A stretch of 61,442 bases of DNA, filler included. It is 9 parts of 9 records of this genome, joined end to end, with 100 filler letters (N's around TTAATTAATTAA, not from the genome) between each part and the next. Parts side by side here need not be neighbours in the genome. Positions count along the whole stretch, not along the records: positions 31,673 to 37,784 come from SRR31147125_55911; 8 more parts are not named here. The stretch is one strand, 5' to 3'. The notes beneath the pieces were generated by a model, which searched no databases, was not told where the DNA came from, and was given only the letters and a program-made list of their open reading frames with translations. The translations under genes and the position numbers were made by a program. Each line of letters opens with the position of its first letter. Position 1 is the first letter of the stretch. Below are positions 11,349 to 56,235 of the stretch, one piece after another.

Positions 11349-11448
11349 NNNNNNNNNNNNNNNNNNNNNNNNNNNNNNNNNNNNNNNNNNNNTTAATTAA
11401 TTAANNNNNNNNNNNNNNNNNNNNNNNNNNNNNNNNNNNNNNNNNNNN
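11349..11448. other. Artificial contig linker
   Basis: N44-TTAATTAATTAA-N44, stops in all six frames. Confidence 0.98.
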
Positions 11449-19013: not shown

Positions 19014-19113
19014 NNNNNNNNNNNNNNNNNNNNNNNNNNNNNNNNNNNNNNNNNNNNTTAATTAATTAANNNNNNNNNNNNNNNNNNNNNNNNNNNNNNN
19101 NNNNNNNNNNNNN
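19014..19113. other. Artificial contig linker
   Basis: N44-TTAATTAATTAA-N44. Confidence 0.98.
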
Positions 19114-24702: not shown

Positions 24703-24802
24703 NNNNNNNNNNNNNNNNNNNNNNNNNNNNNNNNNNNNNNNNNNNNTTAATTAATTAANNNNNNNNNNNNNNNNNNNNNNNNNNNNNNNNNNNNNNNNNN
24801 NN
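24703..24802. other. Artificial contig linker
   Basis: N44-TTAATTAATTAA-N44. Confidence 0.98.
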
Positions 24803-29764: not shown

Positions 29765-31572
29765 TTATTTAATCCCGTCAAATCGAATACTCTCCACATC
29801 GCTCTTGTCATCAATTATAAGGTTTTTATCATCTGTTGAGGTAATTTTCTTGCCATTAACAGTAAGTCCGGTAAAGGAGATATCGCCACAATTTTCCATT
29901 CTAATTGGTACTCCCTTTTTTCCCTTTGTAACCGAACCGATTTTGTTATTCTTAAGAACACTATTTTTAACTGCACCCATCCAAATAGCAGTTCCGTACC
30001 ATTCCTCTATGGTATTATTTTCCACAATTATGCCATCTATGAGGCGCCCCTCAGCTGTATTATGCGGAAAAACACGATTTCTGATTTCAATGCCGTTTTT
30101 TTGAATATCCTTGATATAATTATTTCGTATAATGACATTTTCAGGATAGGGACCTTCCGGCCAACGGGGAAGATTGGCATTAGCAACTCCATTGGTAACA
30201 ACAATTCCTTCACCATTAAGACCATAGATTAGATTTCCCTCAACCAACCCATTTGCAGGTTTAAGAAACATAGCGTACCTGCGATGGTGACGAAATATAT
30301 TATTTCGAATGATATAGCCGGCACCTGATGCATTGCGGTTATAGAAAATATGGGCTTTCTTACGATCTTCAGAGAATATCACGCCTTTGATAGCTTTATC
30401 CAATTCGACTGTGTAAGTATTTCTGTTGTCATTAAGAGAAACTACTCTGGCTCTTCCCAGGGTATTACCGTTTGAAGGATCAAAGACTTCCAACAAGTCC
30501 CCTTTTTGTATCAGGGTACCGTGATTAAGTACATATTTTGTTGGAGAAATAATCTCTTTTATAACATTAGGACTACAGTAAAGATTGATGCTATCATCAA
30601 TCTGACCTTCCATCAGGCACTGTTCAATAATAGAACCACGGCGATTTTGTCGAAGATGAAAACCGTCAGCACAGGAAGTGATCAGCCTGTCAGTCCCCGG
30701 CTTAAACATTAGATGAATACCTCGAAAAGTGGCAAGCTCTGTTTGTTTTGCACCGAACGTTAGACTGGGGCAGGAATAGACAATGATATCCTCAAGGGTA
30801 TTCTCCTTACCACCAGTAATATGCATGACGCCACCTGCATGCATGCCGAGGGGGATAACAAACCTATCTCCTTCTTCTATTTGGGCAATGTTGTCTACAG
30901 ACAGGTGGCTTAATATGAGTTTGACCCGTCGTTTCCCGGCTTTCGATTTGAGCACCTCGTAATCAGTAATTCGGCATGCGTTCATCACATCTCGTTTAAA
31001 TCTTCTACGCTTAGGTTCCATGATGACTCCCCAACCTCTGCCCAATGCCTTTTTGCCAACGTTCATTGTTAATTTACCATCTACCTGCTGAGGACCTCCG
31101 AGCAGTTTAGAATTAAATGGGGCGTCAGAAGGAATGGGGTAACCCTTGTGCACTTCCATAGTGAAAGTTCCATCCTCGGCATTTATCTCAGAAACAGTTC
31201 CTTGCATATAAGGCAGAGGACTGTAGTCGACAATAAATCCTCGCAAGATTACATTTTCACAATCTTTAAGATCAAAAGCAAGCATGTCTGGAGAAATTAG
31301 CAAGGTGGCTCCATTGCCACAAATGCTTATGTTTTTTGCTTTATCAACAGTCCAGGCATATTTTTTTGATTCGTGAGCAGCCACCCGGTAGGTTTTAGGT
31401 GAGAACAGAACAACACTTCCGGAACCTTTCGCTTTGGCAGCATTTATGGCATTTTCTATGGCTACGGTATCATCAGTTTGGCCATCTCCTTTGGCACCAT
31501 ATTTCTCTACTTCAAATATTTTCGACGAGTCGCCGGGGAGTATAAATTTTTCCGGCTTATAATTATTAGCAG
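29765..31572 (-). CDS. Right-handed beta-helix glycoside hydrolase-like protein (GH110-like), 5' truncated
   Basis: Frame open to the contig edge with KYGAKGDGQTDDTVAI; TSCADGFH and GQIDDSIN motifs; IRNN repeats. Confidence 0.7.
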
Positions 31573-31672
31573 NNNNNNNNNNNNNNNNNNNNNNNNNNNN
31601 NNNNNNNNNNNNNNNNTTAATTAATTAANNNNNNNNNNNNNNNNNNNNNNNNNNNNNNNNNNNNNNNNNNNN
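31573..31672. other. Artificial contig linker
   Basis: N44-TTAATTAATTAA-N44. Confidence 0.98.
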
Positions 31673-31696
31673 CTCTCAAGACCCTTGATTTTACTG

Positions 31697-31756
31697 TGGT
31701 GCCGGAGGCGAGACTTGAACTCGCACAGGGTTGCCCCCGGAGGATTTTGAGTCCGT
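31697..31756 (-). tRNA. tRNA-Leu(CAA) 3' fragment (att core), lacking acceptor 5' strand and D arm
   Basis: Minus strand GGACT-CAA-AATCC, long variable arm, GCGAG-TTCAAGT-CTCGC, CTCCGGC-ACCA; upstream sequence is not tRNA-like. Confidence 0.85.
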
Positions 31757-31903
31757 ATCCAAGGTAAATAAATGCAAAATGAAAAAGGATATTGCAAATA
31801 AATACAAAGTCAATATAGTTGTTATTTAAGGAAGTTATACAATAAGTGTAGTTGTCCGCAAATTAATGCCAAATACTCAAAATAGCTACCATAATTCGGG
31901 TGA

Positions 31904-31925
31904 GTGTTGCCAAAGTGTTGCCAAA
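31904..31925. repeat. Tandem 11-bp direct repeat, candidate integrase arm-type sites
   Basis: GTGTTGCCAAA twice, about 150 bp from the att core; partial copy ATGCCAAA at 31866. Confidence 0.55.
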
Positions 31926-32224
31926 TCCCCATTTAGATCCCCTCATCAAACTTCATTTTTTAAACTCTCACTAAAATTTTATAAAAGTGCCAAGACCTCT
32001 TATGAAATTTTTATAAGTCGAATGTTATTAACATTCTTTGAACAAAATTTTGTCAATAAATTTGCAAATCTCAGTTACAAACATTTTATCAACACAAAGA
32101 TGTTTATAATTGTTAAAATCTGAGCACCCCCGAGACTCTTATGGGGCGCTCCTTCTTTTCTGCCAGGGAAAGGAAACAATTTCAGACATTATCACCCATT
32201 TGCAGATCAACAAGATATCAGTCT

Positions 32225-32254
32225 TTGACAACACCATGCCACCAAACGTATAAT
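32225..32254 (+). promoter_or_regulatory. Consensus sigma70 promoter
   Basis: TTGACA-18 bp-TATAAT, with ATG 5 nt after the -10. Confidence 0.75.
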
Positions 32255-32259
32255 TGATT

Positions 32260-32517
32260 ATGGAACCAATAAAAAAAGAACTCACAGAAAAAAAAACTAC
32301 AGAAAAAGAAAGCTTCTGGTGCTACGCTGTCATTGTGTTCACGATCTACTTTGCGATAATTCTCGCGGCGCAGATATTTGGGGCCGAAGATTTTGCCGAA
32401 AAAATCCATACGTTTGTCGTGCAATTGGTTTTCGGCATCATTCTATGGAGCGGCATGATCATTTTCCCCATTGCCTTTATTCTTTTTCTGTTTGCGCGGC
32501 TTCGACCGCGACGTTAA
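32260..32517 (+). CDS. Small two-TM membrane protein (element cargo)
   Basis: Two hydrophobic segments and a basic C-terminus; follows the consensus promoter. Confidence 0.6.
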   Translation: MEPIKKELTEKKTTEKESFWCYAVIVFTIYFAIILAAQIFGAEDFAEKIHTFVVQLVFGIILWSGMIIFPIAFILFLFARLRPRR

Positions 32518-32569
32518 CCGGCACAATAGTACCCAGAATAACCGTGCAAGGGCATCAATGAGGGAAACC

Positions 32570-32827
32570 ATGATTGAAGAACTTGTGAGCATTGCTTTTA
32601 GAGGGATGTTTCGATTACTCATGTGGATTTTCATTGAGTTAATCATCGAGCTGGCTTTTTATGTGATCGGTTACCCCATCGTCAAGATAGCCACTTTGGG
32701 TAGGTACCCACGGCACGGCATCTTTGATGGGGCAAAAACGGATGATTCCTCGGAGTTTTACGTCAGCATTGTAGGCTTATTGGTCGCGGTACTATTCTTG
32801 GTAATCGTTTTTTCGACTTCTTTATAA
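32570..32827 (+). CDS. Small membrane protein (element cargo)
   Basis: GAGGG RBS before ATG; two hydrophobic segments around IGYPIVKIATLGRYP. Confidence 0.6.
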   Translation: MIEELVSIAFRGMFRLLMWIFIELIIELAFYVIGYPIVKIATLGRYPRHGIFDGAKTDDSSEFYVSIVGLLVAVLFLVIVFSTSL

Positions 32828-32988
32828 ATTCAAAGCTCAACAATACTCATCCGGACACCCGCGTATCCAATCGTTTGATCGAAATCAATGCCCTAGCTCA
32901 TTGATAAAGTAGCCTGAGCTTGATCTCGGCCGGTAACAATGTCGGTGGCAGACGTTAACCACTCCCTTTAAAATGTTGTCTCTGATCT

Positions 32989-33438
32989 TCATACTTCATC
33001 CTCTTCGGTATCCGGAAACACCACGTTCAACTCATCTTGAAAAATATCATCATCCCTAAGGTCCAACGTGGCGGGGAATGAAAAGTTCACTCCATCATCA
33101 ACCTGGTCAACGGTGACAAGAGCCGGATTGAGTTCTGCCAGTCGAACCAAATACCTGAGAATCTCCATGGTGGGATGAACGTCCTTCATCGATCGTGCAT
33201 ATTCAATTGATGCCCATATCTGGTCAAGGCGGCTCTGGTCGCTCTTATGCTTGGGGTTATATTTTCTATCCAAGTTGTCAGATAGGGCCTTATCTGCCTT
33301 GTCTCGGTCTATTAAGTTTTTCCCACCGATAATCTTGAAGCACCCGGCCAACTTCCCCTGCTTTTTGAGTGTGGTGATTCTTGGAGCTGAAACGTTCCGG
33401 TGTTCAGCGTATTCCTTTTGGGTCATATATTGAGTCAT
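32989..33438 (-). CDS. Small-terminase-like winged-HTH protein 2
   Basis: MTQKEYAEHRNVSAPRITTLKKQGKL...LIDRDKAD resembles prophage TerS DNA-binding N-termini; AGAGGT RBS; starts about 95 bp after cos-like copy 2. Confidence 0.55.
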   Translation of the reverse strand: MTQYMTQKEYAEHRNVSAPRITTLKKQGKLAGCFKIIGGKNLIDRDKADKALSDNLDRKYNPKHKSDQSRLDQIWASIEYARSMKDVHPTMEILRYLVRLAELNPALVTVDQVDDGVNFSFPATLDLRDDDIFQDELNVVFPDTEEDEV

Positions 33439-33531
33439 GGGTTAATTAACCTCTCTTGATTAACGTTAATTTCGATTGAATGTGACAGTTATGGGTTAAC
33501 TCATTTTTAACATCCGTAACTATGGAGAGAT

Positions 33532-33579
33532 GGCGCCACCGTGACCCCTACCATTTCACCCCTTGGTAAGGACCCGCAA
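33532..33579 (-). promoter_or_regulatory. cos-like packaging motif, copy 2
   Basis: TTGCGGGTCCTTAC-N14-GTAGGGGTCACGGTGGCGCC; contains the lambda cosQ heptamer GGGTCCT; repeated at 37187-37234. Confidence 0.6.
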
Positions 33580-33640
33580 AGCCCAAATTGACGCGAGTTT
33601 CAGCCATCACACACTCTCCCCACATCATCACAGATCATCA

Positions 33641-33895
33641 TCAAGATGACCGCCTCATCGGCTCTGTTCTGAGAGCTGTTTCATGTTCAATTGGTGGCCT
33701 TGCCCTGGGATACATTGCATGGAGCAACCGATAACATCCAAGGCATAATTCCCTTACCTCTTCGGGATCTCTTGGGGCGCCACTTGAATCGTTTTTCAAT
33801 GGACACGACGAGCATTTAAAATCATCTCGATCTATCCCAGCTCTCAAGGCATCATCGAGGCATTTGTCATAGTTTTGACAGAAGACATTTCTCAC
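33641..33895 (-). CDS. Small Cys-rich (putative Zn-binding) protein
   Basis: GGAG RBS then GTG; RNVFCQNYDKCLD..FKCSSCP..LCLGC. Confidence 0.55.
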   Translation of the reverse strand: MRNVFCQNYDKCLDDALRAGIDRDDFKCSSCPLKNDSSGAPRDPEEVRELCLGCYRLLHAMYPRARPPIEHETALRTEPMRRSS

Positions 33896-33917
33896 TGTAC
33901 AACTCCACTCATGAAGG

Positions 33918-33957
33918 GACAAAAAGAAATGGCCGGTCCCGCAGAAAGAGAACCGGC
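33918..33957 (-). terminator. Intrinsic terminator after the S49/coiled-coil operon
   Basis: Minus strand GGCCGGTTC-loop-GGACCGGCC-ATTTCTTTTT. Confidence 0.6.
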
Positions 33958-34046
33958 CTAGAGGTACCTCTTGACTGATCCGTGCATACCGTCACGGATG
34001 CAGCCACCACCTTTTGTAAAAGGGCAGGTTGGAAGACCCTTGGCGC

Positions 34047-34394
34047 TTAATAGACCACAGACGTGGAATAACCAAATGATGCCGTTTTGGGTCGGGATGG
34101 AGCGGCGTTTTCTTCCACAATCCCCGCTTGCTCAATGAGCCTCTCATCCATCCGCTCCCTCAGTTCTTCAGTAACAACCTCACACCGTGCGACCTTTGCC
34201 TTTGCATCGGCAATGTCAGAATGGAATCGTTCAATCTCAGCATCGCATAAGTCCTTCTGCTTCAGCTTCTTCTCAAGCTTAAAAATCCGGGCGGCATTCA
34301 GTTCCTTCACCTTCTCAGCGGTCAGATAGTTGGTGGCAAGGCTCGCCAGCGGTGACCAACCTTCCTTCATAATCTCTTTGAAAAGCTTGCTCAT
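34047..34394 (-). CDS. Coiled-coil hypothetical protein
   Basis: Charged helical pattern; TAATG stop/start coupling with the upstream gene. Confidence 0.7.
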   Translation of the reverse strand: MSKLFKEIMKEGWSPLASLATNYLTAEKVKELNAARIFKLEKKLKQKDLCDAEIERFHSDIADAKAKVARCEVVTEELRERMDERLIEQAGIVEENAAPSRPKTASFGYSTSVVY

Positions 34395-35107
34395 TAGCGC
34401 CTCCCTTGGATTCGATATTCCTTGATCACTTTCTCCACGATCTCCGGAGTTACTCCATCCTCACAAGAATCAAGAAGTCTATTGGCTTTATGAATCTTAT
34501 TTCTGATTGCATCTATCCGCTCTTTTACTGGAATAAACCCATCATTGTCTTTTCGAGATTCCTTTATCTCTTCTCTTAGGAAGACAGTGTCTTCGGTATT
34601 CATGAGACCACTGTGCGCTTTCACAATCAACTCAGGTGCGGACTCCCTCATATCACCAGAGTGATGGAAGTAGGTCATCTCAATTCCCTTGATTCGCTCC
34701 CTGATGGCGATTGCTTCAGCACATTTTGAAAAGAACTTTTTGTAAAGCCCGCTCTCTTCTGCTTGCAAAGGTTCGAAGGTTTTCCGAAGGCTTTCTATCT
34801 TCTGCCTGGTCTCATCCGGAAGACTGAAAGCGATTCTTTCCTTGATGGCACTCAGACCTTTTTCGCAAGCATCATTTTTTGACTCAATATCGGTCAGCTC
34901 GGCCTGACGCTTCTTGATACGGGCAGCGACATTTTCACCGCTCATCGCCTCCATCTGAAGCTCAACAAGTTCGGCATATTTCTGGTCATGTTCGGCATCC
35001 AATTTCTCTTGAGCTACTTCAATCTGAATGTGAGATTTGCACAAATCGGCAATGGTGGCCTGTGGATCGTTAAGAACTTTGAACATTATGATATTTCCTT
35101 TTTTCAA
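34394..35107 (-). CDS. Coiled-coil hypothetical protein
   Basis: 237 aa, E/K/L-rich heptad pattern; overlaps the S49 stop codon. Confidence 0.7.
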   Translation of the reverse strand: MKKGNIIMFKVLNDPQATIADLCKSHIQIEVAQEKLDAEHDQKYAELVELQMEAMSGENVAARIKKRQAELTDIESKNDACEKGLSAIKERIAFSLPDETRQKIESLRKTFEPLQAEESGLYKKFFSKCAEAIAIRERIKGIEMTYFHHSGDMRESAPELIVKAHSGLMNTEDTVFLREEIKESRKDNDGFIPVKERIDAIRNKIHKANRLLDSCEDGVTPEIVEKVIKEYRIQGRR

Positions 35108-36276
35108 TGAAGATAACTGGGTGATGATTCAGTCATCGCAAGTTGAGCTTTTCGGAGTTTCTTCTGTTTCTCATCCTTGGCTTTGATCTGGGCATCATGG
35201 GCGGCGGCGATTCGTTTAGCCTCGGCAATCAGGGGATTCTCAGCCTGAGTATTTGTCCTGGATGCCGCGATAGCGTTAAAGGCTTGTGTTACCGGGTTTT
35301 TATCCGCTCCCCCTGTTTCATCAACTGTGGTGGGGGTGTTCTCGCCCCGCCTTTTTGCAGCCAAATCGTCAAAAGCTTTCTCCACAGGGTTTGCTTCAGC
35401 GGCAGCCTTTGCCCTCCGTTTGACATCTTCCACCAACGGATTCACGGTGGTTGCCGGTGTCGGCTTGGGTGTGGTGGCACTCGGTGTGGGTGAAGAGGCA
35501 CTGGCGTATTTATTGGTTTTAGTGGGGGAGAAAATTGTCTGCACCGCTTTTTCAAAAGAGGCTATCTCATCCACGAAACCGATATTGACCGCGTCCTGTT
35601 CATGAAAGATACCGGCCTGGGTCCCTTTAACGGTATCAACAGAGATCCCGCGATTCCAAGCGACGGTCCTGCAAAAGTCCTCATAAATTGAGTCAACATG
35701 CTTTTGGACATCAGCATGGGCTCTTTCCGATAGCGGAGAGTGTGAGCTGAAATCATTTTTCTTGTCACCGGCAATGATGGCCGTGATATTCACACCAAGG
35801 TTTTCGTCGTACTTTGATTGATCCACATGGGTACTGATCACGCCCACAGATCCCACACCGGCATTTCTGGCAAGGAAGATCTTAGATGCAGCAGAAGCAA
35901 GGCCAAACGCTGCGGAATAACACCCATCACTCACAATGACGTAGATAGTGGCCTTTTTTCTCAGTTCATAAATCTTGTCGGCACAATCGAGCATTCCTGT
36001 TGCGACTCCGCCAGGTGAATCAATTATTACGATTACTTTATCTTTCTGGGCGCAGAGTTTTGCCAGCTCAAAACCGATCCTTCGATAAGTGGATGTGAAG
36101 AGGATACCGCCAATGGACATGAAGCCATAATCCTCTTTTGAATCGTCACTTTGGACCCACAGTTTTGGCAGCTCCAAAGTGACGGATGCCTCTTTAAGAT
36201 CTCCGCTCAATAATCCACTTACGGCTGTTTCGACCAGCATCAGCGGCTTTCCGTTAAATTCATAATTCGGTTTCAA
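35104..36276 (-). CDS. S49 peptidase, lambda gpC-like prohead protease with scaffold-like tail
   Basis: IDSPGG, CYSAAFGLAS, GVGSVGVI..HVD.S, AGDKK, F..TVAWNRG, GFVDEI; P/T-rich linker and repeated helical tail. Confidence 0.85.
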   Translation of the reverse strand: MKPNYEFNGKPLMLVETAVSGLLSGDLKEASVTLELPKLWVQSDDSKEDYGFMSIGGILFTSTYRRIGFELAKLCAQKDKVIVIIDSPGGVATGMLDCADKIYELRKKATIYVIVSDGCYSAAFGLASAASKIFLARNAGVGSVGVISTHVDQSKYDENLGVNITAIIAGDKKNDFSSHSPLSERAHADVQKHVDSIYEDFCRTVAWNRGISVDTVKGTQAGIFHEQDAVNIGFVDEIASFEKAVQTIFSPTKTNKYASASSPTPSATTPKPTPATTVNPLVEDVKRRAKAAAEANPVEKAFDDLAAKRRGENTPTTVDETGGADKNPVTQAFNAIAASRTNTQAENPLIAEAKRIAAAHDAQIKAKDEKQKKLRKAQLAMTESSPSYLH

Positions 36277-36467
36277 GATAGCTCTCTTTCACTCAAAAAT
36301 TTTTCAATTCGATCCTCTAATTGTTTTGACGGCTGATTCGTTCCGCGAATGATTCCGTACAGATGGCCGGTACTGACCTTCAATGCCCTTGCCAGTCTTG
36401 CAGTGGGATACCTGCGGAGAAGATCGGCCCTTGGATGCTCTGGAATTTCAGGAAGCGTATGAATCAT
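36273..36467 (-). CDS. Small Cro/Xre-like HTH protein
   Basis: TARLARALKVSTGHLYGIIRG..PS; GGAGG RBS; coupled to the S49 start. Confidence 0.7.
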   Translation of the reverse strand: MIHTLPEIPEHPRADLLRRYPTARLARALKVSTGHLYGIIRGTNQPSKQLEDRIEKFLSERELS

Positions 36468-36514
36468 TTTCTTGTCCTCCCGCTTGAGTTATTGCTAATA
36501 GTATTCATGTAGTG

Positions 36515-36544
36515 AGTATATGCCGCAGAGATAGTGTCTTTCAA
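36515..36544 (-). promoter_or_regulatory. Putative sigma70 promoter for the HTH-S49 operon
   Basis: Minus strand TTGAAA-18 bp-TATACT. Confidence 0.45.
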
Positions 36545-36673
36545 GATAAAAATAATAATAAAATCAGATACTTGTAGTAAATTGTACTTATTTGTATTTG
36601 TTTGTATTTAGTGGTGATTTTTCAGAATGCCCGGATGGATACCGGGCAGGGGGAAGGGGCTCTTTGCCAGAAA

Positions 36674-37126
36674 TCACTTCGGTGTCGGTGTGTACTTTCC
36701 CGGCCTTGCAAATTTGCTGATGATCCCTTTGACTTCATCGGTGAGAACTTTCAAAACCTCTTTTTTCGATTTATCAGTAATCAGAGGGGCAACTCTCATG
36801 GGAATAGCTCCAAGCCCGCTTGACATCTCCGAGACTCGCCACGCCCATGCAGCCTTGAAGTCATCAATCAATATGACCGACCCATCAGCGATGTTGGCCT
36901 TGACGGTTTCGTTCCTGGCCTTGGCCTGCCAGTATTCAAGCTTTGCGGCTGCCAGGTCTTCACCGTCCTCTTCTGATCGATAGACATTTTCTAACCACCA
37001 ATTCAGGACATCTTTAAGATTCCACTTTCCATGCCCGGCTTTGGGACATCCCTTATCGGCCCAGAGTCTTACCGCCCGATCTGAGATATCGAATAACTCT
37101 GCAATTTGATTTGTTGTTAGAAGCAT
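36674..37126 (-). CDS. Terminase small subunit, lambda Nu1-like (or Rpp-like)
   Basis: TNQIAELFDISDRAVRLWADKGCP...WNLKDVLNWW winged HTH, a helical segment, then SGLGAIP.RVAP; starts about 60 bp after cos-like copy 1. Confidence 0.75.
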   Translation of the reverse strand: MLLTTNQIAELFDISDRAVRLWADKGCPKAGHGKWNLKDVLNWWLENVYRSEEDGEDLAAAKLEYWQAKARNETVKANIADGSVILIDDFKAAWAWRVSEMSSGLGAIPMRVAPLITDKSKKEVLKVLTDEVKGIISKFARPGKYTPTPK

Positions 37127-37186
37127 CTATTCAAATGTTCCACGGAATTCGGAAGTAGCGTTTTTATGTTACAAGTAGGCGGCAAA

Positions 37187-37234
37187 GGCGTCCCCGTGAC
37201 CCCTACTAAACTACGTTACAGTAAGGACCCGCAA
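37187..37234 (-). promoter_or_regulatory. cos-like packaging motif, copy 1
   Basis: TTGCGGGTCCTTAC-N14-GTAGGGGTCACGGGGACGCC; compare lambda CGGGTCCTT...CAGGTTACGGGGCGGC. Confidence 0.65.
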
Positions 37235-37242
37235 GGGTTAGA

Positions 37243-37784
37243 TTAAGCGGCTATCTGAACCACTGGGAACAATGGCCCTGTAACATCAACATATCTTTTC
37301 AAACGATCTTTCACGTTTTTATAAACGTCGTGATAGTCGCTGCATTTATCCGTCTCATCAACAATCCATTCTGCGATTAAATCCTCAATGCCCATCAGCC
37401 GATTAAGAGCACGTTCACTCATGGTGTCTCGGAAATTATCAGGGACGGCGTTAGTTTCGAAAAGCTCTCGGTAGACCAACTTAGTGAACAGCCTGTAATA
37501 CCGGTGAGCATTCCGACTGCCATTTGACTCCGCGTATTCAACAAAAACCTGTACAGCATCGGTAAAAGATCTCCGGCAGGTTTTGCCGTTGAGACGTGCC
37601 TGTTGAAAAGATGCAGACTGACGGCGGAGTAACTCGCGTTCCATCAACTCGAAAGCGTTATAAAAGTCGATCTTCCATTGAAGGGCTTTTTTGCCGTTAA
37701 AACCCATGCATAAAATCGAGAAAGACTTCCTGTCCATCTCATACTTTTTGCGTTCTTCACCCTTTGAATCTACATAATCAACCA
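37243..37784 (-). CDS. Rha family phage regulatory protein, 5' truncated
   Basis: YVDSKGEERKKYEMDRKSFSILCMGFNGKKALQWKIDFYNAFELME. Confidence 0.88.
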
Positions 37785-37884
37785 NNNNNNNNNNNNNNNN
37801 NNNNNNNNNNNNNNNNNNNNNNNNNNNNTTAATTAATTAANNNNNNNNNNNNNNNNNNNNNNNNNNNNNNNNNNNNNNNNNNNN
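37785..37884. other. Artificial contig linker
   Basis: N44-TTAATTAATTAA-N44. Confidence 0.98.
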
Positions 37885-38579
37885 CCGGTTTTTTCAAGAC
37901 CTATATCGATGTTCTGGGGTTACCGGTATTCCTGAAGGCGCTGATTCCCTGGTCGCTGTTCATCACCGGTACGACCATGATTCAAGGGGCTCTGCTCTAC
38001 TATTTCAAATATATATACAACGATGAAGGCCTCTTTCAGATAGCGCTGCTCTTTCTGCTGGCATTCAGCCTGATATTCATCCCAATCTGGGTGAAAATTT
38101 CAAAAAAGATCGGCAAGAAATGGTGCTACAACATCGGCATGGCAATTATGAGCATCTCCGTCTTATCTTTTGCCCTGCTCGGAGAGCAGCTGGGGCCGAC
38201 TTTTGCGTTTGCTATTATGGCCTTCGGCGGCATTGGTCTTTCCACCCACTATGTCATTCCTCACGCCATCCTCCCCGATATCGTTGAATATGACTCAATC
38301 AAAAATAACGGACTGCGGCGAGAGGGTGTTTTCAGCAGTCTCTGGACATTCCTCAGTAAAATCGGTCAGGCACTGGCTCTGGCCCTGAACGGATGGATAC
38401 TGGCAGCTTTTCAGTACGATGCTCTTGTTGCACCGGAACGAGTTACTCTGACAGGTATCAAAATCATCTGCGGACCGGCTCCGGTAGTTTTTTATATTAT
38501 TGGTATCGTAATCCTCGCTTTTTACCCGATAGACAGAGCATATTACGATAAGATGATCTCAACGGGAACAGTGGAATAG
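37885..38579 (+). CDS. MFS glycoside-pentoside-hexuronide transporter, 5' truncated
   Basis: LLYYFKY, PIWVKISKKIGKK, LPDIVEYD..G.RREGVF, FYPID. Confidence 0.88.
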
Positions 38580-38603
38580 GAACCGGATTTCCGGGAGTGC
38601 GGC

Positions 38604-40010
38604 ATGGTAAAGACCCAGCGAAAGTATTTGAAGCTCAAGCGTCCGGTTGTGGGGCGCGGTTTTGTTGCGCCGAATTTTTCCCGATTTGCCTTTCACTTCA
38701 TGCGTATTGCCGGAAGAGCCTATATCAAACTGTTCGAAGGTATTTCATCCGTTACGTTACAAAATGCAGATCCATTGATAGATGCCTTCCACCAATTTCA
38801 GGATGGTGATAAACGCCTGATCCTCGCTTTCCGACACGCTTCTAAAATGGATGCTCCGGTACTTATGTATGCAATCAGTAAGTCACAGGCCAGGATCGCG
38901 CGCAAGAGAGGCAGGCAGTTAAGGAAAACACCGCATGTTCGCTTTCTCTATGGCAAGGATGTGCTGAACTGGGCGGGAGCTGCGGCAGTGTGGCTTTTTC
39001 CCCGCATTGGCAATATACCGGTGGTAAACGGTGAGTCCAACAAGGAAGGGCTCTCTCTTTTGAAAGAAGAGATATGCAGCGGCGAATTCCCCATTGCTCT
39101 GGCACCAGAAGGACAGGTCACCTACCACATGTATCAGTCCTCACCAATCGCACAAGGCACTGCCGCTCTTGCCCGCTGGGGATTGGACAGCGGTAAAGAT
39201 GTGACCGTCTTACCGGTTGCGATCGGCTACCATTACACAGATGACTGCAACAAGCTGGTAAAACAGGTACTGAAACGCTGGGAACGACTTACCAACCAGA
39301 AAATCGATGGAACGCTGCCGACCGGATTCATCAAACCGGAACTGCAGGATACATCCGACTACTCGAATCTTTACGCCCCGCTTATCGAGGCTACCGATAA
39401 AACTCTCGCACAGCTTGAGGACTTTTATCACATTGACCGGTCTGCTGATGATAGTGGAAACGAGTGGTTGGATGATTTCAAAAAACGCATTGCGGATATT
39501 TGTGAAACAGCTTTGAAAACAGCGGAATCGATGCTCAATATAGAGGGTGTCGGCGATTGGCTTAGTCGTGTATTCCGAATTCGTTACATCGGCATGTCCA
39601 ATCTGTATCCGGAAACATTCAATCCCCTTTTTCTGCCGCCGCTGCAGCGCAATAAGGCCGATTTCCGATCTCTTGAGGCACGTATCTATATCCGCCACTC
39701 TCAGGTTGTTGATGTTTTAGAGTACCTTGATCCATCCTACATCTTTCCTGGCTGTCAGCCCCAGCGCTACTGCGAATACGCCCTCAATCTGCTCGATATC
39801 ATCAACCGTTTGATGGGCGGTGATATCAGTTCCCGTTTCAATCCCGCAAAAATTCAAGCTTATGTGGTTCCCGGAGAACCGATCAGTACGAAGGATTTTT
39901 ATGGTGAGAGCGGCCAGGCTGCTGGACGCAGAGCAATGCAGGAGAAATTTACCGACCACCTGCTGCAGGTGCTGAGTTCCATGTCGGCTGATCTGGATGT
40001 GCCGCAATAA
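38604..40010 (+). CDS. PlsC-superfamily acyltransferase
   Basis: HxxxxD (FRHASKMD), LAPEG, LPVAIGY. Confidence 0.75.
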   Translation: MVKTQRKYLKLKRPVVGRGFVAPNFSRFAFHFMRIAGRAYIKLFEGISSVTLQNADPLIDAFHQFQDGDKRLILAFRHASKMDAPVLMYAISKSQARIARKRGRQLRKTPHVRFLYGKDVLNWAGAAAVWLFPRIGNIPVVNGESNKEGLSLLKEEICSGEFPIALAPEGQVTYHMYQSSPIAQGTAALARWGLDSGKDVTVLPVAIGYHYTDDCNKLVKQVLKRWERLTNQKIDGTLPTGFIKPELQDTSDYSNLYAPLIEATDKTLAQLEDFYHIDRSADDSGNEWLDDFKKRIADICETALKTAESMLNIEGVGDWLSRVFRIRYIGMSNLYPETFNPLFLPPLQRNKADFRSLEARIYIRHSQVVDVLEYLDPSYIFPGCQPQRYCEYALNLLDIINRLMGGDISSRFNPAKIQAYVVPGEPISTKDFYGESGQAAGRRAMQEKFTDHLLQVLSSMSADLDVPQ

Positions 40011-40089
40011 TCAGCTGCTTCACTCATCTTTACCAGAGAGTTTCCCGCATTTCATTGCATAATCACCCTGCAGGGGTTATTTTAAACAT

Positions 40090-41025
40090 ATGGGTATGTT
40101 TTTTTCCGGATTATTACTGATATTCCACTTCTCACTGATTTTCTCTATCACCCTGTTCTGTATTATTCTTTTCTATCGGACTCGGGATCAACTTGTCAGC
40201 CGCTTCCTGCGGATAATGATACCGCTGTTTTTCTTTACCCTGATCTATTTCCTCTTTTATTATACCAATAGTACCAAAGATATTCTGCCGAATATCGGCA
40301 GCGATGCAGCATCGCTTTTTATGCTGATTACCTCCTGTCTGACACTGGCTCTCTACATCCTTGGAGTAGTCTACTATCTTATTTCCATGCTTGTACCGGA
40401 ACAGCAAAAGCGCAAAATCCCGCAAATGATAACCAATATTCTCATCGGAGCCTTTCTGCTCTACAGTCTCTACTTTCTCATACTGCTGAACCGTGATAAC
40501 TGGTACCAGGCACTGTCCATCGCACTGAATCAAATGTTCCTCTACAGCAGTATTCTGCTGATAGTGCCAACAATCGTAGCCTCGGTATATCTGCGCCGCA
40601 ACAAAGGAAATGAAAATTTCCGGCTGCTGTATGAAATTATGATTGCCTTCTACCCTATGGCCCTCACACTGCCGCTGGACCTCATCTTCCTCCAGAATTC
40701 TCCATTTAAACTGACACTGCTGACCCACTCCCTCTACTCTATTTTTGTATTTTTCTACATTGTCCGCCACTATATGATCAACTATGAAGCTGAACCTACC
40801 AGTCTGCAGGAAGAGGCAGAACTATTTTTCAAAGAGCATGAGATCAGCCAGCGGGAACAGGAAATTGTTATGCGGGTCTTTGAGGGAAAAACGAATCGCG
40901 AAATTGGTGAGGAGCTGTTCATCTCTCACAATACGGTAAAAACCCACATTCGCAATATCTATAAAAAGCTGGAGGTCAACAACCGTGTCCAGCTGATTCA
41001 TGCCATTAAATTGACCTCCGAATAG
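40090..41025 (+). CDS. Membrane-bound LuxR-family regulator
   Basis: About seven TM segments plus ISQREQEIV..GKTNREIGEELFISHNTVKTHIRNIYKKL. Confidence 0.9.
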   Translation: MGMFFSGLLLIFHFSLIFSITLFCIILFYRTRDQLVSRFLRIMIPLFFFTLIYFLFYYTNSTKDILPNIGSDAASLFMLITSCLTLALYILGVVYYLISMLVPEQQKRKIPQMITNILIGAFLLYSLYFLILLNRDNWYQALSIALNQMFLYSSILLIVPTIVASVYLRRNKGNENFRLLYEIMIAFYPMALTLPLDLIFLQNSPFKLTLLTHSLYSIFVFFYIVRHYMINYEAEPTSLQEEAELFFKEHEISQREQEIVMRVFEGKTNREIGEELFISHNTVKTHIRNIYKKLEVNNRVQLIHAIKLTSE

Positions 41026-43818: not shown

Positions 43819-43918
43819 NNNNNNNNNNNNNNNNNNNNNNNNNNNNNNNNNNNNNNNNNNNNTTAATTAATTAANNNNNNNNNNNNNNNNNNNNNNNNNN
43901 NNNNNNNNNNNNNNNNNN
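43819..43918. other. Artificial contig linker
   Basis: N44-TTAATTAATTAA-N44. Confidence 0.98.
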
Positions 43919-44900: not shown

Positions 44901-45389
44901 CTATACCGGCATGCCGAAGCCGTAAGCATCGTCTTCCGAAAAAACCTTTTCTATCGAAGCCAGCACATCGCACCATTTCCGGGTGGTTTCCGGCCCCAGC
45001 TTCTGAACCAATCCCTGAAAAAGCCTGAACAGACTCTCCTCCACCGCCTCGATCTGTTTGACCGCCTCGGGCGATATGCGCACCTCCACCTTGCGACGAT
45101 CCTCACTGCTGTGCTCACGCAGCAGGATCCCCTTCTCGACCAGCCGATCGACCATGGCCGACGCCGACGGCGCCGAAATCCCCAACTGCTCGGCCAAAAC
45201 CCCCATGGAGAGCGGCCCCTGCTTTCTGACGATGGAGATGGCATTCATCTGCGCCACGGACAACTCGCTGCCCAGGCTGGTCGCCTTGTTCGCCAGATGC
45301 CGGCTGTGAACCTTCAAGATCTGCTCATGGATCATGCGGCCGGTGGTAAAAATAAATCGCGCCTGTTCCATTTCGTTTTGCATGTTCAT
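44901..45389 (-). CDS. MarR family regulator
   Basis: LAEQLGISAPSASAMVDRLVEKG...EDRRKV. Confidence 0.92.
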   Translation of the reverse strand: MNMQNEMEQARFIFTTGRMIHEQILKVHSRHLANKATSLGSELSVAQMNAISIVRKQGPLSMGVLAEQLGISAPSASAMVDRLVEKGILLREHSSEDRRKVEVRISPEAVKQIEAVEESLFRLFQGLVQKLGPETTRKWCDVLASIEKVFSEDDAYGFGMPV

Positions 45390-50612: not shown

Positions 50613-50712
50613 NNNNNNNNNNNNNNNNNNNNNNNNNNNNNNNNNNNNNNNNNNNNTTAATTAATTAANNNNNNNNNNNNNNNNNNNNNNNNNNNNNNNN
50701 NNNNNNNNNNNN
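50613..50712. other. Artificial contig linker
   Basis: N44-TTAATTAATTAA-N44. Confidence 0.98.
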
Positions 50713-56135: not shown

Positions 56136-56235
56136 NNNNNNNNNNNNNNNNNNNNNNNNNNNNNNNNNNNNNNNNNNNNTTAATTAATTAANNNNNNNNN
56201 NNNNNNNNNNNNNNNNNNNNNNNNNNNNNNNNNNN
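56136..56235. other. Artificial contig linker
   Basis: N44-TTAATTAATTAA-N44. Confidence 0.98.

Follow-up and report, generated by a model that had tools for sequence, protein, structure and literature searches.

The window analysed here is a 61-kb stretch in which nine contigs are joined by N spacers (N...TTAATTAATTAA...N; positions 11349–11448, 19014–19113, 24703–24802, 31573–31672, 37785–37884, 43819–43918, 50613–50712 and 56136–56235). One contig (31673–37784, 6.1 kb) carries two 48-nt motifs on the minus strand, 3.66 kb apart, which we read as lambda-type cohesive-end (cos) sites and call cos1 and cos2. Each is co-oriented with a downstream gene whose product matches PHROG 57 (terminase small subunit, TerS); we call these products TerS1 and TerS2. 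The features on which the argument turns are as follows.

33532–33579, minus strand: cos1, comprising cosQ GGGTCCT (33569–33575), a 21-nt spacer and the cosN block GTAGGGGTCACGGTGGCGCC (33532–33551); pattern match and alignments
37187–37234, minus strand: cos2, comprising cosQ GGGTCCT (37224–37230), a 21-nt spacer and the cosN block GTAGGGGTCACGGGGACGCC (37187–37206); pattern match and gap-free alignment
33427–33531, minus strand: candidate cosB of cos1, with two TTAACCCAT(A/G)ACT copies (33487–33499 and 33433–33445); sequence reading
37127–37186, minus strand: putative cosB of cos2, holding CTTCCGAATTCCGTGGAACAT (37135–37155); common to phages with TerS1 relatives
32989–33438, minus strand: TerS2, a 149-aa chimera of a winged helix-turn-helix (HTH; residues ~1–60) and an unnamed domain (~66–149); phrog_57 3e-9
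36674–37126, minus strand: TerS1, 150 aa, a Nu1-type small terminase; phrog_57 1.3e-25 over its whole length

An earlier note on this DNA had described twin 48-nt intergenic motifs on the minus strand, with differing 14-nt cores and a TerS-like gene directly downstream of each; the sequence, the table of open reading frames (ORFs) and pattern matching bear this out. Read from 33579 to 33532, cos1 is TTGCGGGTCCTTAC CAAGGGGTGAAATG GTAGGGGTCACGGTGGCGCC, and cos2, from 37234 to 37187, is TTGCGGGTCCTTAC TGTAACGTAGTTTA GTAGGGGTCACGGGGACGCC. The flanks are identical at 14/14 and 18/20 positions, with a cosN block consensus of GTAGGGGTCACGGnGrCGCC, and the cores, compared by eye, agree at 3 of 14 positions, no more than chance would give. 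Upstream of cos2 is a Rha-like gene whose stop lies at 37243, and 60 nt downstream of the site TerS1 starts (37126); cos1 lies between the end of a doubtful 93-aa ORF (33641) and the start of TerS2 (33438), 93 nt before it.

We give next to no weight to the idea that the pair arose by chance, through an assembly artefact or as a generic repeat. The window's being made of joined contigs could raise the suspicion; nothing positive speaks for it. Exactly two stretches of the window match the 41-nt core pattern, and 100 dinucleotide-preserving shuffles gave no match, even at three mismatches; GGGTCCT occurs nowhere else in the 61 kb, and the motif has homologues in phage contigs. In X1, the sole sequencing run that contains the contig and probably its source, positions 31725–37784 form one unitig of 6,060 nt and even depth, which rules out an assembly duplicate; nor are the sites a collapsed duplicate, since their spacers and flanks differ. 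A second run matches only the tRNA part described below and one short stretch, and no RNA run with the contig is listed.

Homology to phage sequences points instead to cos sites. Scans of contig collections yielded 13 distinct loci encoding TerS1 relatives, among them two phages (L001 and L005) whose genes are ordered TerS, large terminase (TerL), portal, S49 protease, capsid. The arrangement cosQ–spacer–cosN stands upstream of terS, on the same strand, in five of the 13 (L001, L005, L007, L009 and L011), at −1210, −131, −112 and −220 in the first four; L007 has an exact GTAGGGGTCAC with the same spacing, and L011 carries the variant AGGTTCTT in place of GGGTCCTT. Four further loci have the motif at or beside a contig end. 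The earlier note had proposed looking for the motif upstream of terS in related prophages; it stands there in five loci, and in four IMG/VR contigs it precedes a primase-helicase gene (see below).

Two alignments (A2 and A7) run without a gap from cosQ through cosN across nine sequences, namely the two window sites and seven relatives from phage or phage-like contigs. The family layout is GGGTCCTT, 19 variable nt, then TAGGGGTCAC (window sites, L007, L032 and L033) or TACGGTTAC / TACGGTTAG (L001, L005 and L009); the block GG(G/T)T(C/T)AC is common to the whole family, and the spacer varies in sequence while its length is fixed. The cosN block nearest to that of cos1 is GGGGTCACGGAGGCGCG in L033. 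Within 119 kb of relative loci, both strands included, GGGTCCTT occurs six times, in four cases on the terS strand and no more than 1.21 kb before that gene.

Lambda's large terminase acts on cosQ and cosN, and its TerS docks at cosB (excerpts of PMC6739421 and PMC6092414). The lambda right end reads ...ACGGGTCCTTTCCGGTGATCCGACAGGTTACG and the left end GGGCGGCGACCTCGCGGG... (NC_001416); cosQ shows the same CGGGTCCTT, its GGGTCCT standing in the record as the earlier note had said, and the right end stops 23 nt after GGGTCCT. The likeness further includes the GGT(T/C)ACG(G) block that follows and the location, 60–220 nt ahead of a co-oriented Nu1-type TerS gene. The window sites depart from lambda in two respects: the distance from GGGTCCT to the GGT(C/T)AC block is 6 nt longer than lambda's (GGTTACG) in all nine family sequences, so that the surplus of about 6 nt remarked on earlier proves constant in every member, and the cosB elements bear no relation to those of the lambda left end.

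Contig termini fall at the same place. L008, identical to L007 over the region, begins GGTCACAAAGGC (GGTCAC...), 22 nt after L007's cosQ; L012 (record G001, 45,228 bp) begins GGGCAGCGCG and L013, from another sample, begins TACGGGCAGCGCG, both matching L001's ...GGTTACGGGCAGCGCC; and at the other end of G001 (45198–45228) the last base lies 24 nt after GGGTCCT. These ends, at +22 to +28, fall where the window motifs have their conserved 3′ block, and in five of the 13 contigs terS stands no more than 330 nt from the contig start. The ends of assembled contigs are ragged; those of L012 (G001:C1:1–20), L013 (1–13) and L008 (1–12) lie some 6 nt or less apart. IMG/VR lists these records as linear without end repeats, but they probably preserve physical genome ends. 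Sequence homology, spacing, position relative to the genes and the termini of related-phage contigs coincide at the site, and the cos interpretation of both motifs, which the earlier note had put forward, is well supported by these comparisons.

The earlier note had also seen a compensatory dyad in the motif. The pairing TAC(C/T)...(G/A)GTA is indeed present at both window sites, but it represents a single covarying position that none of the seven A7 relatives keeps, and we regard it as incidental; conserved flanks around a free core are as expected of two protein-recognition blocks at a fixed distance. We consider it very improbable that the motif is an RNA hairpin, GGGUCCUUAC(C/U)-12 nt-(G/A)GUAGGGGUC, in the terS mRNA leader, acting for example in antitermination or translational control. 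On the transcribed strand the dyad mismatches would all be G–U pairs and one position covaries, but Rfam returned nothing at E ≤ 1 (30000–41000), folds of both strands were no better than shuffles (z of −0.53, +1.08, +0.12 and +0.08), the minimum-energy fold differs from the proposed hairpin at both sites, and the blocks coincide with phage contig termini. The RNA element was rejected on these results, and neither of the refutations named earlier, an RNA element or a generic repeat, has held.

Outside cosQ and cosN, the two sites differ. The sequence CCGTG(G/A)AACAT (CCGTGGAACAT) is found in the window only at cos2 and recurs in L007, L008, L009, L010 and L011; ACTTCCGA(A/G)TTCCGT (ACTTCCGAATTCCGT), likewise downstream of cos2, is common to L001 and L005. 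The cosB2 element is unique within the window, and at cos1 the cosB2 elements were not found. By their position these elements would be cosB, and they appear to travel with the TerS1 family. The candidate cosB of cos1 has a 12-bp palindrome, ATTAACGTTAAT, between its two repeats; TTAACCCAT(A/G)ACT has two matches in the window, a number reached in 1 of 100 shuffles, and the repeats may bind a protein. Because cosQ and cosN are common to both sites while cosB and the downstream gene are not, the arrangement suggests one nuclease with two initiation specificities. The earlier proposal of two helper phages fits less well than a single nuclease, since the parts read by lambda's large terminase are shared and it is the TerS-docking side that differs.

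The two downstream proteins show no similarity to each other by BLASTP. TerS1 has 29 homologues at 45–73% identity, some with PF07278 and some named Nu1 subunit by their source, and the small terminases of the cos-bearing phages are 45–69% identical to it; its nearest genome-borne relative lies in a metagenome-assembled genome (MAG) labelled Desulfobacterium sp. (one locus from genome_contigs). The TerS1 family profile matches 1J9I (the Nu1 DNA-binding domain) and 7LWR (~1e-4), and RppC (6HLK) at 4e-3. All 27 invariant TerS-family residues are present in TerS1, which ends right after the conserved ...G.(Y/F)TP motif, without the Lys-rich C-terminal tail present in all 29 relatives.

TerS2 matches phrog_57 over residues 3–82 only, and its C-terminal domain carries an LRY(L/I)V.L.EL.P motif and an acidic tail. 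Its predicted structure has a mean pLDDT (predicted local distance difference test) of 61, with values of about 80–87 in the N-terminal domain and no confident model of the C-terminal domain; Foldseek aligned it with small winged-helix proteins, including the TerS domain 7LWR, and gave no PDB match at E ≤ 0.001. The homologue P0032 is 67% identical over the N-terminal 72 residues, then diverges and continues as an ordinary TerS.

Searched exhaustively with HMMER, TerS2 has 44 relatives, and the family forms about a dozen 50%-identity clusters in metagenomes, with no Pfam domain beyond HTH matches. Ten of the 44 were scanned against PHROGs: three (P0033, P0034 and P0039) are full-length TerS proteins that share only the N-terminus, and the other seven match phrog_57 at the N-terminus only, several of them aligning over most of TerS2 with the LRY(L/I)V.L.EL.P motif. 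One homologue, P0030, is 84% identical to TerS2. Its contig and that of P0076, the one homologue (62% identity) of a 237-aa protein encoded behind TerS1, are recorded at 22,899 bp each, and one contig probably carries both. A search of viral_contigs with TerS2, the 237-aa protein and a TerS2-family alignment (A5) returned no relatives. A metagenome scan with a further alignment (A6) gave three loci encoding ordinary full-length TerS-like proteins that share the N-terminal domain alone; cosQ was not found upstream of these three.

The remaining features of the contig are listed here.

37243–37737, minus strand: Rha-type regulator, C-terminal part only, the contig ending within the gene; Phage_pRha 58–91 of 91, phrog_2657 79–232 of 243
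36273–36467, minus strand: 64-aa HTH-like ORF; HTH_3 at 0.064 only
35104–36276, minus strand: S49 head maturation protease, 390 aa; Peptidase_S49 2.5e-26, phrog_53 2.8e-67
34047–35107, minus strand: two overlapping coiled-coil ORFs of 237 aa and 115 aa, at the end of the TerS1 operon; no Pfam or PHROG family
33931–33958, minus strand: intrinsic-terminator-like hairpin with a 10-bp stem, 7 GC pairs and a T run; consensus match only
31697–31754, minus strand: attachment-site (att)-like tRNA fragment, 58 nt, the 3′ part (T-arm, CCA end) of a class-II tRNA; by-eye reading

On the 6.1 kb seen, Pfam and PHROG scans and tblastn with the phage counterparts detected neither TerL nor a portal or capsid gene from cos2 to att, and the 64-aa ORF occupies the place that the large terminase and portal genes hold in L001 and L005. 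The operon ORFs are intact and tightly packed, overlapping start to stop. Given the missing head genes and an end at a tRNA-fragment att, the contig looks like a satellite. At the tRNA fragment, ARAGORN found no whole tRNA and Rfam matched the T-arm only (E 0.17); in X1 its depth is ~2–3.5 times the contig's, with further unitigs branching off at 31754/31755, a pattern that an att duplication would produce. Read by eye, the fragment suggests Leu-CAA. Another X1 unitig carries a near-copy of 31896–31929 just past the tRNA fragment, which suggests tandem or successive integrations at one tRNA gene.

The reading we favour, and hold to be probable though far from certain, is that both motifs are lambda-type cos sites and that these 6 kb are the att-proximal part of an integrated phage satellite with cos packaging, or of a satellite-like derivative of a lambda-like head module. 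We infer cleavage at the sites, protein binding and dependence on a helper; both sites may be active. The helper's large terminase would nick within the cosN block, and the molecule ends, if the sites are cut, would fall inside GTAGGGGTCACGG at one or both. A single helper nuclease specificity could in this way serve two initiation complexes, with TerS1 loading on cosB2 and TerS2 on cosB1, the latter either as a substitute TerS or as a redirector of a TerS, like Rpp of the E. coli phage-inducible chromosomal islands (PICIs). Packaging would run toward the terS side, and the second cos, 3.66 kb on, would be passed, the head being nearly empty at that point. For the E. coli satellite EcCICFT073, filling a full-sized head is reported to require that the terminase skip cos sites (excerpts of PMC6092414 and PMC6739421).

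Several results weigh against this reading. The contig ends lie at +22 (L008), +24 (right end of G001), +25 (L013) and +28 (L012) after cosQ and define no single nick position; run X1, stored as contigs, shows no molecule ends. In 4 of the 13 loci (L002, L014, L015 and L016) no cos motif was found, three of these having just 1 to 329 nt upstream, and the exact satellite motif had 0 matches in viral_contigs and 0 in metagenome_contigs. The TerS2 family profile matched neither RppC nor any solved structure at E ≤ 10; TerS2 is for that reason not filed as an Rpp, and we infer an Rpp-like working at most. Integrase, replication genes and a helper are not on the contig, so a decayed prophage is possible. 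Finally, L030–L033 carry the motif between thymidylate-kinase-like and primase-helicase genes, not before terS.

These four contigs came from an IMG/VR scan for GGGTCCTT-N17-TAGGGGTCAC, which returned five contigs, the fifth being L007's. Their motif reads CTGCGGGTCCTT...ATAGGGGTCACG(G/A)AGGCGCG (for example L032:6103–6137 and L033:2243–2277) and so agrees with the window sites beyond the pattern that was searched. The set includes a Rha-type regulator from the PHROG that also covers the one in the window, and no head genes were found in the 13.5 kb seen of L031. Such carriers indicate a mobile-element signal and not a chromosomal repeat, and a motif without terS is as expected if terS-less satellites also carry it; we count L030–L033 as candidates for cos satellites that lack terS and belong to this packaging family.

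That the contig is instead the decayed end of a lambda-like prophage, with TerL and portal deleted, no packaging function at present and the cos sites left over from two head modules, seems to us improbable. TerL and portal are missing exactly where the related phages have them, TerS1 lacks the basic tail of all its relatives, the Rha gene is partial, no integrase or replication gene is visible, and X1 unitigs suggest further related element ends beside the same att. Yet the operon is free of broken ORFs, TerS1 retains every invariant family residue, the Rha truncation is a contig end and not a mutation, and cosQ and cosN are perfectly kept at both sites.

It is also unlikely, if somewhat less so, that only cos2 packages and that cos1 is a recombination relic carried with the TerS2 gene, a termination-only site or a site that lowers transfer. 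Only cos2 has cosB elements and a full-length TerS in common with real phages, and TerS2 is without the oligomerisation and TerL-binding part of TerS. The terminator-like hairpin sits between the cos2–TerS1 operon and the cos1–TerS2 module, and the protease is only 26–32% identical to those of the TerS1-related phages; protease and TerS1 being of different ancestry, the region is mosaic, which counts for a relic. There is a precedent in the E. coli satellite EcCICFT073, in which only cos1 is needed and deleting cos2 raised transfer (excerpt of PMC6092414). Against a relic, cos1 keeps its conserved blocks at 14/14 and 18/20 while its spacer has diverged to chance level, a pattern that speaks for continued selection or recent conversion of cosQ and cosN; TerS2 is intact, belongs to a recurrent family, and has its 84% homologue on a contig that probably also holds the homologue of the 237-aa protein.

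EcCICFT073 is also the closest parallel for the satellite we favour. That it carries two cos sites, as the earlier note stated, is confirmed by excerpts of PMC6092414 and PMC6739421, which describe phage-like cosQ and cosN, a foreign cosB and function of both sites when cloned; its Rpp, a protein with a TerS-like DNA-binding domain, forms a pair with the helper TerS to read the cosB of cos1. The same sources report two putative cos sites in SaPIbov4, a Staphylococcus aureus pathogenicity island (SaPI), and with these two examples the twin cos of a satellite is already established knowledge. The window element resembles EcCICFT073 in its two cos sites with helper-like cosQ/cosN and differing cosB and in a protein with a TerS-like DNA-binding domain, which sets specificity there. 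Unlike EcCICFT073, which is reported to have no TerS of its own, it has a near-complete TerS and a chimera with a TerS DNA-binding domain, one per cos. The resemblance of the proteins to Rpp is confined to a weak RppC match of the TerS1 family, through the shared DNA-binding domain only; the TerS2 family has none.

The uncultured DUF1441/PF07278-type cos phages (L001, L007, L009, L011 and L012 from IMG/VR, and the MAG locus L005) share with the window element TerS proteins at 45–69% identity, the same cosQ–spacer–cosN and the cosB of cos2. In those phages terS is followed by TerL, portal, protease and capsid, and the stretch seen has one cos in each, whereas the window element has two cos sites, no TerL, portal or capsid, and a protease of another lineage. 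In terS-encoding PICIs and SaPIs, the satellite's own TerS directs its packaging. Capsid-forming PICIs carry head genes (bioRxiv 10.1101/2022.09.08.507074), and the window element has a head-protease gene. From these satellites the window element differs in having no capsid, portal or TerL on its 6.1 kb and in using cos, not pac. What sets it apart is a TerS after one cos and an unnamed-family TerS-DNA-binding chimera after the other, a head protease and coiled-coil proteins without a capsid gene, and a host evidently far from E. coli.

A bolder version, which we regard as doubtful, would make this a new type of cos satellite with two initiation systems on one helper nuclease: a near-complete TerS with a helper-family cosB, and an unnamed-family protein with a private cosB as an independently evolved redirector analogous to Rpp, the S49 protease-scaffold and coiled-coil proteins remodelling the helper capsid. 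The protease has a long, Ala/Pro-rich, coiled-coil C-terminal part, and together with the coiled-coil ORFs, in an element without a capsid gene, it could form a capsid-remodelling or scaffold module. In the ESM Atlas the 237-aa protein fell into unnamed clusters and a low-ranked Psu cluster, recognition being below a useful level.

If both sites work, twin cos sites with shared cosQ/cosN and private cosB would not be peculiar to E. coli PICIs, and the same design would recur in satellites of uncultured, probably sediment-dwelling bacteria. If the proposed role of TerS2 is true, a small unnamed family joining a TerS DNA-binding domain to a new C-terminal domain would be tied to packaging specificity. 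The cos family itself (GGGTCCTT, 19 variable nt, TAGGGGTCAC / TACGGTTAC) offers a search pattern for genome ends and satellites in viromes. The practical gain is modest: a published principle is extended and none is newly established.

DNA similarity searches with 32900–37800 or 31400–38000 turned up nothing among phages (distant mode), E. coli genomes or plasmids; on that basis, and with the nearest genome-borne TerS in the Desulfobacterium MAG, the host lineage is evidently far from E. coli and not enterobacterial. Within X1, a 12.5-kb unitig of depth like that of the contig shares 30–31-nt stretches with 32837–32867 and 37755–37784; these lie 12.2 kb apart in that unitig and 4.9 kb apart in the contig, and the unitig itself was not found within the window. 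The wider spacing points to a second, larger related element, probably present in the same sample, which could be a fuller version of the satellite or its helper. Downstream of TerS2, two small membrane-protein-like ORFs lie on the other strand. GC content varies between 0.32 and 0.58 among the pieces of the window, and SusC/SusD-type genes are present on one of them, observations that suggest an assembly that is mixed or binned; because the contigs are joined by spacers, the SusC/SusD and high-GC genes elsewhere in the window are not neighbours of the motifs.

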